A stretch of 64,000 bases of DNA from an uncultured Planctomycetia bacterium (lineage in GTDB: Bacteria > Omnitrophota > Gorgyraeia > Tantalellales > Tantalellaceae): contig CAZNEE010000001.1 of assembly GCA_964572255.1 (NCBI GenBank), positions 395,587-459,586 on the forward strand. Reading direction: 5' to 3'. Shown in pieces: positions 9,113 through 32,779 of this stretch. The translations under genes and the position numbers were made by a program. How positions within the stretch are numbered: the stretch's first letter is position 1; each line of letters begins with the position of its first letter. A model generated the notes under the pieces. It did no database searches. It was not told the DNA's origin and worked only from the letters and a program-made list of their open reading frames with translations.

Positions 9113-9160
9113 GACTATTCCTCGCAGGGACGTCAAAATTCCCCAGCGAGGAATTTTGAC
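9113..9160. repeat. Palindromic repeat family A, copy 1 (core CTCGCAGGGACGTCAAAATTCCCCAGCGAG)
   Basis: A second copy is at 32517-32575. Its flanking stem bases co-vary: TTCCTCGC/GCGAGGAA here versus TTTCTCGC/GCGAGAAA in copy 2. It sits in an unusual ~160 bp gap between murE and murF. Confidence 0.6.
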
Positions 9161-18435: not shown

Positions 18436-19227
18436 GTGGCAAGGAAGAAAAGATCTTCATCAAGAAAGAAAAAGAAAAGAATAAGCATGCCGTTCAAAAA
18501 CGTGTTTGCGAATAAAGGAGTTCTCATTTTCGCAGTATGTGCGGTACTGCTTGCCGGTATTATTTACGGACTGGGATATTTTTTCCTTAACAGTTCTTTT
18601 TTTAATATTAAAGAGATATCCGTGAATAAAGAACGCGGATATTCTTTTACTGAGGGCAAGGCAAAGCTGAATGATCTTTACCTCGGACATAATATTTTCA
18701 GGGTTGACCTTAAACAGGTAGAGCGTTTCGTGAAAGACAGATATCCCCATCTTAAAAAAGTTGAGGTACGGAGGATGTTCCCTGACCAGATCGAGGTGGA
18801 TATTGTCCCGAGGCAATCGGTGGCGTACATAAGCGCGGGATACAATGTGGTGATCGATAAGGAAGGAATAATATTGGGAAAGAGCGATGACGTAAAAAAC
18901 CTTGTGGAAATAAAAGGGATAAATTTCTTTTTTACCCCGAAAAGGGGGGAGAAGATAAAAGATAAACGTGTGGCGTCAGCTCTTGACCTTTTGGACGGAT
19001 TGAATAAGAATTTATCGAGGGTTTACAGGAATTTTGAATTTATTGATATTTCAGACAAAAGAAACCTCATACTCGGGATAGACGGAATGACTGTTAAGAT
19101 GGGAAGCAGCGATTTTACGGGAAAAGTAAGAAAACTCAGGCAGATATTAAGCGACCCGGATATTGATCTAAAGGATATAAACTATATTGATCTCAGATTT
19201 GATGATGCTGTGATCTCGCCAAAATAG
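18436..19227 (+). CDS. ftsQ: Cell division protein FtsQ (POTRA domain) with lysine-rich N-terminal tail
   Basis: A lysine/arginine-rich cytoplasmic tail (MARKKRSSSRKKKKR), one TM, then POTRA-like and FtsQ domains. Lies between ddl and ftsA. Confidence 0.75.
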   Translation: MARKKRSSSRKKKKRISMPFKNVFANKGVLIFAVCAVLLAGIIYGLGYFFLNSSFFNIKEISVNKERGYSFTEGKAKLNDLYLGHNIFRVDLKQVERFVKDRYPHLKKVEVRRMFPDQIEVDIVPRQSVAYISAGYNVVIDKEGIILGKSDDVKNLVEIKGINFFFTPKRGEKIKDKRVASALDLLDGLNKNLSRVYRNFEFIDISDKRNLILGIDGMTVKMGSSDFTGKVRKLRQILSDPDIDLKDINYIDLRFDDAVISPK

Positions 19228-19238
19228 GATGAATTTAT

Positions 19239-20291
19239 ATGGATAAACAGATCGTATCGATGCATATTGGCTCGGGAGAGATAACGGTAGTTTCCGCTCA
19301 TTGGGCAAGGGGCGGCGAGTATGTATTGGACGGTTTTTACAGGACCGGCGCAAAAGGCTTGCGGGAAGGAGTTGTTACCGATACGAACGAGGCCATAGAT
19401 TCCATTGCCAGGTCATTAAATGGAATAAGGGGGAGAACCGGCATCAAGTTCAGGGAGGTCTATACCGGGATAACATCCCCGTCAGTGGATATGATGCCTG
19501 CCATGGGAGATGTTCTGCTGTCAAAGTACGGAAGGGAGATAAATCCCGGCGATATGAAAAAATGCGTGGAAATGGGGTCGGTGATCAAACTTCCTTTAGA
19601 GAGGGAATCTTTGCATAAGCTGGTCAGCGAATTTTATGTAGACGGAGAAAAAGGCATTAAAAATCCCGTAAATCTTGAAGCGGTAAAGCTCGGAGTGAAG
19701 ATCAATATTATAACGATAAGATCCAATATTCTGAATAATCTTATAAAATGCATAAATATGGCAGGATATCTTTCTTCAGGATTTGTTCTTTCCGGGCTTG
19801 CTTCTTCGTACAGGACGCTTACTCAGGAAGACAAAAATGAAGGGGCGGCGCTCATACGCATTTCTAAAGAGATCACGGAGATCCTCTTTTTCAATAAAGG
19901 GGTCATGACGAACTGCAAGGTCCTTGCTAAAGGCGCGGATAACATCATGGCAAGCGACAATACGATCAATGAAGATGTGCTGGGTGAACTTACATCAAGG
20001 ATCAGGCAATATCCTGAGTGGAAACAGACCAAAAGAATAGTTTTGACAGGGGAAGGATCCATGTATGAAGGCATGTTAGAGTCATGGGAAAGTTCATTGA
20101 ACTCGCCGGTGAAAATCGGGAATTGCCTTGCAAGGCCGTTCGAAAACCTGCCTGAAGACAGAATGGGTTATATCGTAAGCCTCGGCATTTTAGACCATCT
20201 TTATCGGGAAAAACAGCAAAACCGGCTCGCCAACAATCTCATCAACGGGGCATTTTACAGAGTAACGGGATTTATCGATAAGTACTTTTAA
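19239..20291 (+). CDS. ftsA: Actin-like cell division protein FtsA (short form, 350 aa)
   Basis: FtsA-type N-terminus (IVSMHIGSGEITVV...GLREGVVTDTNEAIDSIARS) and position after ftsQ. It is shorter than typical FtsA (~420 aa). Confidence 0.65.
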   Translation: MDKQIVSMHIGSGEITVVSAHWARGGEYVLDGFYRTGAKGLREGVVTDTNEAIDSIARSLNGIRGRTGIKFREVYTGITSPSVDMMPAMGDVLLSKYGREINPGDMKKCVEMGSVIKLPLERESLHKLVSEFYVDGEKGIKNPVNLEAVKLGVKINIITIRSNILNNLIKCINMAGYLSSGFVLSGLASSYRTLTQEDKNEGAALIRISKEITEILFFNKGVMTNCKVLAKGADNIMASDNTINEDVLGELTSRIRQYPEWKQTKRIVLTGEGSMYEGMLESWESSLNSPVKIGNCLARPFENLPEDRMGYIVSLGILDHLYREKQQNRLANNLINGAFYRVTGFIDKYF

Positions 20292-20310
20292 TATTGACTT
20301 TGTTTTAGAA

Positions 20311-20382
20311 GTACAGTGCATTTCCTACCAGGGCCCCTCCGCCCGGTGTGGATCCTCCCTGTACGGAAATACACTGTACTTT
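20311..20382 (+). repeat. Structured repeat family B, copy 1 (core GGGCCCCTCCGCCCGGTGTGGATCCTCCC inside a 16-bp outer stem; core-sense on plus strand)
   Basis: The 27-nt core is identical to the copies at 31412-31481 and, in reverse complement, 32625-32695. A 43-nt stretch is identical to copy 3. Outer stems co-vary between copies. The hairpin is followed by TTTT, so it may also serve as the ftsA terminator. Confidence 0.7.
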
Positions 20383-20499
20383 TGAATAAAAGTAAAGCAG
20401 AAAAGTACTTGGCGCTAGATTCCCTTTGCTATTGACATGTATATAAAATTATGCTACTTTTAACCATTAAAATTATTAATATTATAGGGAAAATATGCC

Positions 20500-21300
20500 A
20501 TGAAGAATCTTAAGTTGGGCGTTATAGGCTGCGGTAACATGGGAAGCGCAATAGTGAGGGGCGTGACCAAAAAGGGCATTATCGAAAGCGAGAACATCCT
20601 TATAAATGATGAGGATACAGATAAAGCCGCTTCTCTCGCAAGCGAAACAGGCTGCCGTTCGGCAGAGCTTCCGGATCTGGCAGGCAAGGCCGACTATTTA
20701 CTTTTTGCTGTCAAACCCCAGGATTTTGATGCTCTGGCTGACCGGATAAAGGATCAAATCTCCGGCCAGACTATAGTATCCATTATGGCGGGCGTTACTA
20801 TCGAAGCCATTACCGAAAAAATTGGGAAGGAAACACCTGTAATAAGGGCAATGCCTAACATGGCGGCATTTGCTTCTTCCGGGGTTACTTGCATCTCCTG
20901 CAATAAGCTGGTTGACGATCTTCAGGATGTGAAAGATATTTTCAGGGCCGTAGGCGAGGTGATGGAAGTTGAAGAGGATGATCTGGATGCCGTCACCGCT
21001 ATTTCCGGTTCGGGGCCTGCGTATCTGTTCTTTCTCGCGGATGCCATGATATCTGCCGGCGAAAAGTCAGGGCTAAGCAGGGAAAAGGCGGAAGAGCTTG
21101 TAAAACAAACCTTATACGGTTCGTCCGTTCTTTTAAAGGATTCGAAGGATCTGCCTTCAGAGCTTATTGGTAAGGTTGCTTCTAAAGGCGGTACTACAGA
21201 AGCGGCGCTGTCGGTTCTTAAGGACAGAGACGTGAAAGGTGCGATAATAGAGGCTGTCATAAAAGCAAAGAAAAGGTCCGAAGAATTATCCGGGAGATAA
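20500..21300 (+). CDS. proC: Pyrroline-5-carboxylate reductase ProC
   Basis: NADP-binding LKLGVIGCGNMGSAIVRG and a P5CR C-terminal dimerisation region. Confidence 0.85.
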   Translation: MKNLKLGVIGCGNMGSAIVRGVTKKGIIESENILINDEDTDKAASLASETGCRSAELPDLAGKADYLLFAVKPQDFDALADRIKDQISGQTIVSIMAGVTIEAITEKIGKETPVIRAMPNMAAFASSGVTCISCNKLVDDLQDVKDIFRAVGEVMEVEEDDLDAVTAISGSGPAYLFFLADAMISAGEKSGLSREKAEELVKQTLYGSSVLLKDSKDLPSELIGKVASKGGTTEAALSVLKDRDVKGAIIEAVIKAKKRSEELSGR

Positions 21301-21304
21301 ATTT

Positions 21305-21601
21305 ATGTTTATTCTAAGCGAATTATTCAGGTCTTTAGCGCTCTTGGTCTCACTTGTTTTCAATATACTCTATTTTTTGCTGGTGATCAGGATAATCATC
21401 TCATGGGTCGGGGCAGATCCGTATAACGAGATCGTAAGGATCATCTACACCATAACCGAACCCATACTTGCTCCTTTCAGAAGATTGCCTCTTCAGGTGG
21501 GAGGGATAGACTTTTCACCTATATTGGCTTTTATAGTTTTGAGTGTATTGAGAAATTTTATTGTCAACATACTTTACCAGATAGCATATCGCTTAGGGTA
21601 G
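21305..21601 (+). CDS. YggT family membrane protein (YlmG/Ycf19)
   Basis: 98 aa with two TMs and a YggT-like core (IISWVG...ITEPILAPFRRL). Conserved linkage with proC. Confidence 0.7.
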   Translation: MFILSELFRSLALLVSLVFNILYFLLVIRIIISWVGADPYNEIVRIIYTITEPILAPFRRLPLQVGGIDFSPILAFIVLSVLRNFIVNILYQIAYRLG

Positions 21602-31325: not shown

Positions 31326-31411
31326 TTCTCCCCCCTTAATTGTTGATACATTGTGTATACCATAAAAGGCGATGCGAGTCAAATAGTTGATGAGAATCTC
31401 AATATTAAAGT

Positions 31412-31481
31412 GAGTGGTAGGTACCTTTCGTGGGCCCCTCCGCCCGGTGTGGATCCTCCCACTCAAGGCACCTACCACTCG
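31412..31481 (+). repeat. Structured repeat family B, copy 2 (core-sense on plus strand)
   Basis: The identical 27-nt core GGGCCCCTCCGCCCGGTGTGGATCCTCCC. The outer stem is different but still self-complementary: GAGTGGTAGGTACC / GGCACCTACCACTC. Confidence 0.7.
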
Positions 31482-31542
31482 CTTTAATTAAGAAGATCCA
31501 CTGCTCGCTTCGATGGCGGGTGAAAAAGATCATGAAAAAATT

Positions 31543-31572
31543 TGACAATGGAAAATTATATGGCATACTTTA
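31543..31572 (+). promoter_or_regulatory. Candidate sigma70 promoter driving the riboswitch leader
   Basis: TTGACA, a 16-17 nt spacer, then CATACT/ATACTT. Located about 40 bp upstream of the aptamer. Confidence 0.35.
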
Positions 31573-31599: not shown

Positions 31600-31700
31600 T
31601 GTTTTTATTACGAATCGTAAACCATTCGAAAGAGTGGGGCACAAAGCCAGGGGGCGTAAGGCCGGCCGGCTACCGTTTTAACACTGTCGTAAAGTGTTGA
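31600..31700 (+). ncRNA. c-di-GMP-I (GEMM) riboswitch aptamer
   Basis: AAACCATTCGAAAGAGTGGG at 31619-31638 is identical over 20 nt to the P2 hairpin of the Vibrio cholerae Vc2 GEMM-I aptamer. GCACAAAGCC at 31639-31648 is the Vc2 ACGCAAAGCC motif with its first two bases swapped. A GGCGTAAGG tetraloop-receptor-like P3 follows. It sits in a ~200-nt leader. Confidence 0.65.
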
Positions 31701-31728: not shown

Positions 31729-31760
31729 GTCCCAACCTTACGATAGGTTGGGTTTTTGTT
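31729..31760 (+). terminator. Intrinsic terminator acting as riboswitch expression platform
   Basis: CCCAACC (31731-37), loop TTACGATA, GGTTGGG (31746-52), then TTTTTGTTTATT. It lies immediately 5' of the AGGAGA RBS and ATG of the downstream gene. Confidence 0.6.
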
Positions 31761-31776
31761 TATTAGGAGACTGAAG

Positions 31777-32397
31777 ATGAAAGAAACATGCGATCTTATC
31801 ATTATATTGCTGATGACTATACTGCTCGGGGGTGTTGCGTTCGCGTCCGAAAGTAAACCGGATCTGTACGAGATCACCGGTTACGAAGGAACGCAAGGGA
31901 TCGTTTCATCAGATTATGAAAAGTTAAATACTACAAAAGCGGAAACTGTTTTTCAGATACTGTTGGAAGACGCGGGCTATTGCGACGAAAATATTTTTGG
32001 TATTTACAGTTTTACTGATATTGATGGGATGATAACTGTGGATGTTATGCATCAAATATTCAAAGGGACAGATGCCCCGGGTAGTGAGAAAAACATCTAC
32101 CCCGGGATAAATTCTGAGATAGGGTTTTATCTCACAACACCGCAAGGCTATACGTATTATAGCCATACGTCTTTGAATCCCGATCGAGAGCAGCACATGC
32201 TGCTGTTCTCTTATTCTGATGTCAGCGATTCTGAGAGTTTTGTTGTTGCATGTGAGGACCTGTATGGTTTGGGTGACTGCGATTATAATGATCTTGTTGT
32301 TAAAGCAAGCGACGTACAAGGCAATCCCGAACCGGCTACAATATTATCGTTCTTCCTAGCCGGACTTGGTCTGGCATTTAGAAAAATGAGAAAATAA
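31777..32397 (+). CDS. Secreted PEP-CTERM protein (exosortase substrate), riboswitch-controlled
   Basis: Signal peptide MKETCDLIIILLMTILLGGVAFA. The C-terminal NPEPATILSFFLAGLGLAFRKMRK has PEP followed by a TM helix and a basic cluster. An internal EDLYGLGDCDYNDLVV motif is DUF4114-like. Confidence 0.6.
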   Translation: MKETCDLIIILLMTILLGGVAFASESKPDLYEITGYEGTQGIVSSDYEKLNTTKAETVFQILLEDAGYCDENIFGIYSFTDIDGMITVDVMHQIFKGTDAPGSEKNIYPGINSEIGFYLTTPQGYTYYSHTSLNPDREQHMLLFSYSDVSDSESFVVACEDLYGLGDCDYNDLVVKASDVQGNPEPATILSFFLAGLGLAFRKMRK

Positions 32398-32417: not shown

Positions 32418-32456
32418 AAAAGCCCGCTATGCAAAAGCATAGCGGGCTTTATTATT
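32418..32456 (+). terminator. Rho-independent terminator
   Basis: AAAGCCCGCTATGC-AAAA-GCATAGCGGGCTTT forms a perfect 14-bp stem, followed by ATTATT. Confidence 0.65.
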
Positions 32457-32516: not shown

Positions 32517-32575
32517 GCCGTTTAAACTATTTCTCGCAGGGACGTCAAAATTTCCCAGCGAGAAACAGTTCAAAC
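32517..32575. repeat. Palindromic repeat family A, copy 2 (extended stem CCGTTTAAACTATTTCTCGC...GCGAGAAACAGTTCAAACGG)
   Basis: It shares the core CTCGCAGGGACGTCAAAAT(T)TCCCAGCGAG with 9113-9160. The stem bases are co-varying. Confidence 0.6.
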
Positions 32576-32624
32576 GGCCGTAATAATGGATAATGTCAAA
32601 TATCTCGCTGATTTTGCTTTTTAA

Positions 32625-32695
32625 AGTGCAGTATGTTTCCGTACAGGGAGGATCCACACCGGGCGGAGGGGCCCTGGTAGGAAATATACTGCACT
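32625..32695 (-). repeat. Structured repeat family B, copy 3 (core on minus strand)
   Basis: Its reverse complement is identical to copy 1 over a 43-nt stretch. The outer stem differs at two base pairs, both with compensatory changes (A-T to G-C, and G-C to A-T). Confidence 0.7.
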
Positions 32696-32750
32696 TCTGA
32701 ATAAACATAAAGTCAGAATTTTTTTTGACATTATGCCTCAACGAATGTTA

Positions 32751-32779
32751 TTGACAAAAAAAACAATATTTGTTACCAT
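32751..32779 (+). promoter_or_regulatory. Candidate sigma70 promoter for the mreB operon (TTGACA, 17-nt spacer, TGtTACCAT)
   Basis: TTGACA at 32751-56 and an extended -10 TGTTACCAT at 32771-79. Confidence 0.4.

Follow-up and report, generated by a model that had tools for sequence, protein, structure and literature searches.

The window (the whole 64-kb stretch of DNA that was analysed) contains three copies of a palindromic repeat, designated family B, all of which are intergenic, as the first-pass annotation had indicated. Copy 1 is located 13 nt past the stop codon of a 350-aa ftsA-like gene and upstream of proC. These genes form part of a division cluster (18436–21601) in which ftsQ and the short (350-aa) ftsA-like gene are directly followed by proC and yggT; a search with an approximate query sequence found no FtsZ-like sequence in the 64-kb window. 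Copy 2 lies between a divergent sulfatase-TPR gene (minus strand, start at ~31331) and the promoter-like site (31542–31569) of a c-di-GMP riboswitch/DUF4114 gene, i.e. upstream of this site. Copy 3 is placed between the intrinsic terminator of the DUF4114 gene (~32421–32452; position taken from an alignment reading) and the promoter-like site of mreB (32751–32779). The c-di-GMP-I riboswitch aptamer (31606–31677, + strand; 48.3 bits, compared to a gathering score of 35) precedes the gene of the 213-aa DUF4114 protein (31756–32397), with a terminator-like hairpin (31731–31752) between them.

Another palindromic repeat, family A (ACTATTYCTCGCAGGGACGTCAAAATTYCCCAGCGAGRAA), occupies positions 9114–9153 and 32526–32565. 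The copy at 9.1 kb runs on into a longer element, and the one at 32.5 kb is accompanied by 82 extra nt in two strains of the window's own population (L120 and L127), so that family A is indel-polymorphic and probably mobile. A link between families A and B was considered and dropped; only three family A-like motifs are present in 0.93 Mb.

The whole hairpins and the 29-nt cores of the three family B copies are listed below (+ is the strand of the core as written; classes I and II are the two main architectures of the family).

20304..20386, + strand: copy 1, whole hairpin; class I; covariance-model match of 92 bits, folds
20331..20359, + strand: 29-nt core of copy 1; exact match
31405..31487, + strand: copy 2, whole hairpin; class II-type tip; covariance-model match of 77.5 bits, folds
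31432..31460, + strand: 29-nt core of copy 2; exact match
32619..32701, - strand: copy 3, whole hairpin; class I; covariance-model match of 88.4 bits, folds
32646..32674, - strand: 29-nt core of copy 3; exact match

The core (GGGCCCCTCCGCCCGGTGTGGATCCTCCC) has three exact matches in the 64-kb window and no further match with up to three mismatches, and it was found in none of 100 shuffled sequences, which bears out the earlier claim of an exact core common to the three copies. Each copy constitutes an ~80-nt hairpin with the core at its tip. Predicted RNA folds of the three copies, on either strand, have energies of -37 to -51 kcal/mol (z-scores -6 to -9), and DNA folds -19 to -25 kcal/mol. 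The outer stems, annotated as 14–16 bp, proved to be longer (~19–22 pairs by folding). Copy 1 is built of an outer stem of ~20 pairs, TAC/TAC internal loops, a CAGGG/CCCTG helix and the invariant tip. In copy 2 the tip is bordered by TC / GTGGG ... CCCAC / TCA, and the outer stem (4 + 18 pairs), which is unrelated to those of copies 1 and 3, has its nearest counterparts at loci L017 and L074. Copy 3 is 94–97% identical over 65–78 nt to copies from other species. A covariance model built from relatives recovered only these three copies in the window; covariance-model searching of the window and its syntenic relatives brought no diverged copies to light.

Copies 1 and 3, placed in opposite orientation, are 91% complementary over 79 nt. 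The stretch of identity between them, reported as 43 nt, is indeed identical and extends over 50 nt (20320–20369). Pair-by-pair reading confirmed the two double compensatory changes between these copies, one at stem pair 8 (G-C to A-T) and the other at stem pair 13 (A-T to G-C). Each of the three stems contains one A.C/C.A mismatch that becomes a G.U wobble if the strand antisense to the core is read. The statement that this is the single irregularity of each stem did not hold, however: copy 2 has two non-Watson-Crick positions (one antisense-strand wobble and one core-strand wobble), and copies 1 and 3 carry an additional outer G.T, a core-strand wobble.

On the + strand, copy 1 is followed by TTTTGAATAA, which includes four T residues only; a T-tract is absent after copies 2 and 3 and after most members of the family. 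The suggested role of copy 1 as the ftsA terminator is possible but weak, since only four T follow the stem; the hairpin may contribute some termination downstream of the ftsA-like gene.

The distribution of family B was examined by searching a species-representative genome collection with an exact 20-mer of the core. This analysis revealed at least 113 stretches; the matches listed represent 34 species-level assemblies, nearly all of Candidatus Omnitrophota. A minority among the matches listed are labeled Planctomycetia, Deltaproteobacteria, Bdellovibrionota or simply “bacterium”, and some of the taxonomic labels of these metagenome-assembled genomes (MAGs) may be wrong. Host GC content, judged from bin names and locus composition, ranges from ~35 to 61%. 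The MAG JBDRFA01 alone accounts for 32 loci and about 40 copies among the matches listed. At least 121 unique copies were collected, most of them intergenic and a minority intragenic. The core 20-mer had no match in viral contigs. No Rfam family matched the repeat (whole window at the gathering score; two copies at E ≤ 10), the only matches being to generic miRNA-precursor hairpin models, far under their gathering scores, and a full-text literature search returned nothing relevant on an Omnitrophota/Omnitrophica hairpin, repeat or RNA motif. Family B is a previously undescribed family, dispersed across the uncultured phylum Omnitrophota.

Individual copies are imperfect hairpins of 70–200 nt. 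Class I, to which window copies 1 and 3 belong, has the pattern ...YCC-TAC-C[A/C]GGG-CCCC-TCCGC-CCGGT-GTGGA-TCCT-CCC[T/G]G-TAC-GGR..., and class II, represented by the tip of copy 2, has a TC / TCA loop and RYGGG/CCCRY. A second conserved module, GGGTCCTG...YCACCC, is found farther out in 21 of 58 class II copies. The near-invariant tip comprises the 29-nt core, or 39–50 nt when the 5-bp P2 helix and a small internal loop are included. In secondary copies, which were outside the selection imposed by the search pattern, the core shows only 1–3 substitutions, apart from one decayed copy; tip variation is nevertheless under-sampled, because the search needed an exact 20-mer. The outer stem beyond P2 has 13–25 bp (median 19), and in one sub-family the palindrome is ~195 nt long. 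Conservation peaks at the tip and falls towards the base. Tandem arrays of two or three hairpins, spaced by 107–431 nt, were observed at loci L009 (5461–6120), L031 (2810–2936) and L086 (1346–1494); the tandem copies of L009 sit within a larger non-palindromic repeat unit.

Covariation was examined in a gapless alignment of 56 class I copies. Standard pairs occupy 93.7% of outer stem cells, compared to 70.3% in shuffles and 38–51% with slid partners. Pairs changing on both sides were observed at 21 of the 22 outer-stem positions, and double-change cells numbered 419, compared to 123 in shuffles. The P2 helix contains one covarying pair (A-U, C-G, G-C). The inner 5-bp helix, which contains a G.U when the core strand is read and an A.C on the antisense strand, never varies and therefore speaks neither for nor against its pairing. 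The first-pass annotation had proposed collecting further copies and checking their covariation, and had named absent covariation, or membership of a larger annotated IS, as findings that would speak against its reading; the wider collection revealed strong stem covariation, and the repeat is not part of a larger annotated IS.

Presence and absence of the element were compared in syntenic relatives of the window, which comes from an Omnitrophota-like genome. The best of these, L114 and L117, share 45–90% protein identity with the window and have a common gene order from the murein/dcw genes to mreBC. Both lack an element between the ftsA-like gene and proC, and in both aroA abuts mreB at the place where the window has copies 2 and 3; the region at ~29.4–32.85 kb (3.4 kb) is therefore an insertion relative to L114 and L117. 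Between ~29400 and 32850 it contains the sulfatase-TPR gene (minus strand), copy 2, the riboswitch with the DUF4114 gene, the family A repeat and copy 3. This lineage-specific insertion carries hairpin repeats inside and at its right edge. Conversely, L114 carries a copy of its own ahead of a gene, and the corresponding window site is empty. No copies at orthologous sites were found between species, nor any pair of different loci with homologous genes on both sides; within the der-plsY block the element is present in three different spacers in three species. The three window copies are lineage-specific insertions in spacers, and most likely passengers.

At the strain level, contigs with identical MreB or ProC yielded no empty site, as all of them carry copies 1 or 3 or end there. 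Eight contigs of the window's own population (L122–L126, L128, L130 and L131) start or end 160–195 nt upstream of mreB or proC. These ends coincide with copies 3 and 1; the repeat fragments short-read assemblies.

Several observations identify the copied unit. The ~195-nt sub-family, with identical stems, is present at no fewer than ten different loci in JBDRFA01, and JBFZAV01 contains eight near-identical class II copies. The occurrence of identical-stem sub-families at unrelated loci implies that the whole hairpin, stem included, is copied. Stems within one genome are related by descent, as seen from a shared GCTATRCTCC block and a similarity graded from tip to base. The check for target-site duplications, suggested as a sign of mobility, gave nothing beyond the control: direct-repeat lengths at the hairpin bases equal those of shuffled flank pairs. 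Clustering of 669 ORFs from 113 loci revealed no recurrent neighbour gene family, only housekeeping genes (e.g. ABC ATPases, histidine kinases, Der/Era and PlsY). No transposase was found adjoining the copies and no recombinase gene recurs nearby. A tblastn search with E. coli RayT and an approximate IS200 TnpA query yielded no credible match in the ~0.93 Mb surrounding the copies; two weak RayT-like matches lie inside giant ORFs and were rejected as spurious. A 45-aa peptide encoded by the element likewise gave no candidate in a protein search that required at least three 5-mers in common. Giant ORFs of 2200–2500 aa are located next to some copies (L117, 155–7672; L067, 57–6749; L007; L063).

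Some of the intragenic copies are inserted in frame. Equivalogs of RimO and CobQ have ~49 and ~50 extra aa, respectively, at the element, and a CCA-type nucleotidyltransferase has ~28; in RimO and the CCA-type enzyme, alignments with PDB entries show a gap exactly at the element. These in-gene copies are whole hairpins, whose frames and orientations vary from case to case. Two further candidates, in L033 and L073, were set aside as probable read-through between adjacent genes. Landing sites are mostly intergenic spacers, with some in-frame genic positions, and none is common to different species.

Some copies combine arms from two variants, and one and the same core position is the break point in two copies. 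In these two (JBDRFA01; L015 at ~2537 and L096 at ~6674), the left half has been swapped at ...CTGCC|CCTCCGCCC for the same ~140-nt repeat, which elsewhere runs on as GCCCCTCCGGGAACACCC. This replacement may have arisen by recombination at the shared CCCCTCCG, or it may be an assembly join. Because the data come almost entirely from MAGs, whose assemblies the repeat interrupts, the chimeric arms and both half-replaced copies may be artefacts.

In our judgement, these data make it probable that family B is a non-coding, non-autonomous, selfish mobile palindromic repeat of Candidatus Omnitrophota. Among the natures suggested for it in the first-pass annotation (sRNA, REP/MITE-like element or cruciform), the REP/MITE-like option is the one favoured by the evidence. 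As to mechanism, we tentatively propose, as a possible rather than a probable course, that the element is mobilised in trans via a folded single strand, with the tip recognised and the stem needed only as a helix. For the single-stranded intermediate, ssDNA is envisaged, by analogy with REP/RAYT and IS200/IS605-type systems, RNA being less likely. A putative conserved factor would recognise the tip, and element lineages in which pairing is lost or the tip altered would cease to spread. Selection of this kind would account for the compensatory changes in the stem as well as for the constancy of the tip.

Several points count against the mobile-repeat interpretation. A candidate mobilising enzyme was not found in the ~0.93 Mb around the copies, and no strain-level pair of empty and filled sites, from which boundaries and mechanism could be read directly, was found. 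REPINs and terminal-repeat MITEs have the opposite layout to the conserved centre and variable ends of family B. The tip is intact despite near-saturated stem divergence, which could alternatively reflect purifying selection on each copy, and hence a host function. Finally, lagging-strand ssDNA transposition might be expected to produce an orientation bias, and the orientation of the copies relative to GC skew shows no significant bias (56 vs 40, p = 0.13).

The strand asymmetry of stem mismatches bears on the main alternative, according to which family B is a structured RNA module on the antisense strand (a cis-regulatory or protein-binding hairpin, or an sRNA), with each copy selected by the host. 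The wobble asymmetry towards the antisense strand, first noticed in the window copies, was seen throughout the family: when each sequence context is counted once, isolated 1x1 outer-stem mismatches on the core strand are of the A.C type in 33 cases and of the G.T type in 11 (p = 0.0013), and the antisense strand therefore tolerates the mismatches as wobbles. The count in gapless class I copies is milder (60 A.C vs 39 G.T) and clustered by position, so the signal is inflated by shared ancestry. The antisense strand also gives the better RNA fold in 82 of 121 copies, and three independent A.C variants of P2 (L018, L035, L071) are G.U on this strand. On the same strand the conserved internal loops are purine-rich (GUA/GUA, AGGA/GGGG, UGA/GA, UGA/GCAGGA) and carry GGA motifs. 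Together with the tip that stays intact in nearly all copies though stems diverge, these features fit an antisense RNA.

Nevertheless, this explanation is considered unlikely. The orientation of the element relative to flanking genes is random (26 vs 23; 17 divergent and 8 convergent pairs), copies 2 and 3 precede the promoter-like sites of the adjoining genes and copy 3 follows a terminator, no orthologous retention was found between species, and ORF-internal copies occur in both orientations. Moreover, the G.U of the invariant inner helix is on the core strand and becomes A.C in the antisense RNA. No Rfam family corresponds to such a module, and a tblastn search with an approximate query (a weak test) found no CsrA-like gene in the sequence around the copies. 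The earlier suggestion of a transcribed antisense RNA is thus supported as far as covariation and wobble asymmetry are concerned, but not as a discrete sRNA gene: neither a conserved location, nor a promoter and terminator of its own, nor a consistent orientation was found. Since orientation is random with respect to both genes and GC skew, the wobble asymmetry is a property of the element itself. Either of two causes would fit: selection acting on a folded single strand, be it RNA or ssDNA, or strand-specific damage suffered by a single-stranded intermediate.

Two bolder proposals may be formulated for the tip, although we regard them as distinctly unlikely. The tip may be a docking site for a conserved Omnitrophota factor on the folded single strand, with the ends of the element set by structure; or the antisense hairpin, with its purine-rich GA/GGA loops, may be a functional RNA module kept copy by copy by the host.

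A site in duplex or cruciform DNA for a conserved host protein (a nucleoid protein, topoisomerase or site-specific recombinase), spread by recombination and with the tip as binding or crossover site, appears improbable. It would account for a tip that is invariant across frames, orientations and genomic GC contents of 35–61%, for the about equal DNA folds of both strands, and for the unbiased orientation relative to genes and GC skew. The mixed-variant arms of some copies and the two copies broken at the same core position would likewise fit, but these chimeras may be metagenome joins at a shared repeat, because contigs often end at the element. Furthermore, an intrinsic strand asymmetry of mismatches is unexpected for a purely double-stranded site, the core is without dif-type dyad symmetry, and a recombinase gene recurring nearby is lacking.

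Insertion of the 29–43-nt tip alone into the loops of pre-existing hairpins (e.g. terminators), with stems of host sequence, is highly improbable and largely excluded: some same-genome copies do have completely different stems, and TTTT follows copy 1, but identical full-length stems are found at unrelated loci, same-genome stems are related by descent (the GCTATRCTCC block, graded similarity), in-gene copies are whole hairpins, and the stems (19–30 bp, AT- or GC-rich according to the genome, without T-tracts) are unlike terminators. A group II intron domain V, a K-turn, a dif/Xer site, an uptake sequence, a CRISPR repeat and a hairpin-adapter artefact were each rejected on sequence features and because the genes on the two sides of the element are normal and different.

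Taking family B as a mobile repeat, its closest parallels were sought among known systems. REP sequences and REPINs are likewise short, non-coding, high-copy imperfect palindromes, mostly extragenic, present in both orientations and occasionally in tandem arrays. They share with family B a predicted ssDNA/RNA hairpin, the lack of a target-site duplication and an apparently long-term, lineage-wide persistence. REP sequences differ between genera, whereas the tip of family B is identical across a phylum. Typically, a single-copy RAYT (Y1/HUH) gene is flanked by the repeats and a conserved GTAG-type tetranucleotide stands beside the palindrome. No RAYT-like gene was found next to the family B copies examined (113 loci); on the antisense strand, class I elements have GTAC 5′ and GTAG 3′ of P2, and class II elements lack both. 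Compensatory changes that maintain the hairpin are common in REPINs, in which conservation lies in the two terminal REPs and variability in the spacer or tip (PMC3116915). This layout is reversed in family B, where an invariant tip is combined with free ends, and family B copies, unlike REPINs, also occur inside genes.

Palindromic elements of Rickettsia (RPEs) are inserted in frame in unrelated housekeeping genes and are also present in spacers (PMC10969869). They resemble family B in being palindromic repeats of ~100–150 bp with no known transposase and with in-frame genic copies (RimO, CobQ and the CCA-type enzyme in the present case); they belong to another phylum, no sequence relationship is to be expected, and family B, compared with them by description only, is mostly intergenic. 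To our knowledge, RPE families have not been described with an invariant tip and freely covarying stems.

The defining features of MITEs are terminal inverted repeats that match a parent IS, and flanking target-site duplications. In Correia elements, cleavage by RNase III has been reported as a regulatory side-effect of a MITE (PMC10969869). Like Correia and ERIC elements, family B consists of small non-autonomous inverted repeats that reside in spacers, can form hairpins in transcripts and break assemblies. It is small, non-coding and multi-copy, and shows presence/absence polymorphism, as MITEs do. In contrast to MITEs, its ends vary between sub-families, no duplication was detected and no parent IS was found.

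The attC sites of integrons have a conserved hairpin base (R boxes) and a variable tip, and are arranged in one-orientation cassette arrays beside an integrase. They are similar to family B as recombination substrates folded from a single strand, in which structure prevails over stem sequence and strand selectivity is seen. However, base-conserved R boxes, a cassette array and an integrase are all lacking with family B. Family B works most like REP/REPIN elements, with an RPE-like intragenic habit, and is a member of neither group. Among such elements it is unusual to find a tip with the same letters throughout a phylum together with freely covarying stems.

The repeat provides a phylum-wide marker in the uncultured and poorly understood Omnitrophota, and explains the fragmentation of their metagenome assemblies. 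With dozens of independent stem lineages around a fixed tip, it constitutes a natural experiment in compensatory evolution. It is also a second case, outside Rickettsia, of in-frame palindromic DNA tolerated in housekeeping proteins, and it points to a putative conserved factor that would read a structured motif of 29–43 nt. Should the ends not be defined by structure, family B would be one more selfish repeat of the REP/MITE type; if it is true that such a factor sets the ends by structure, this would represent a new transposition mechanism, operating without terminal repeats, duplications or a linked transposase.
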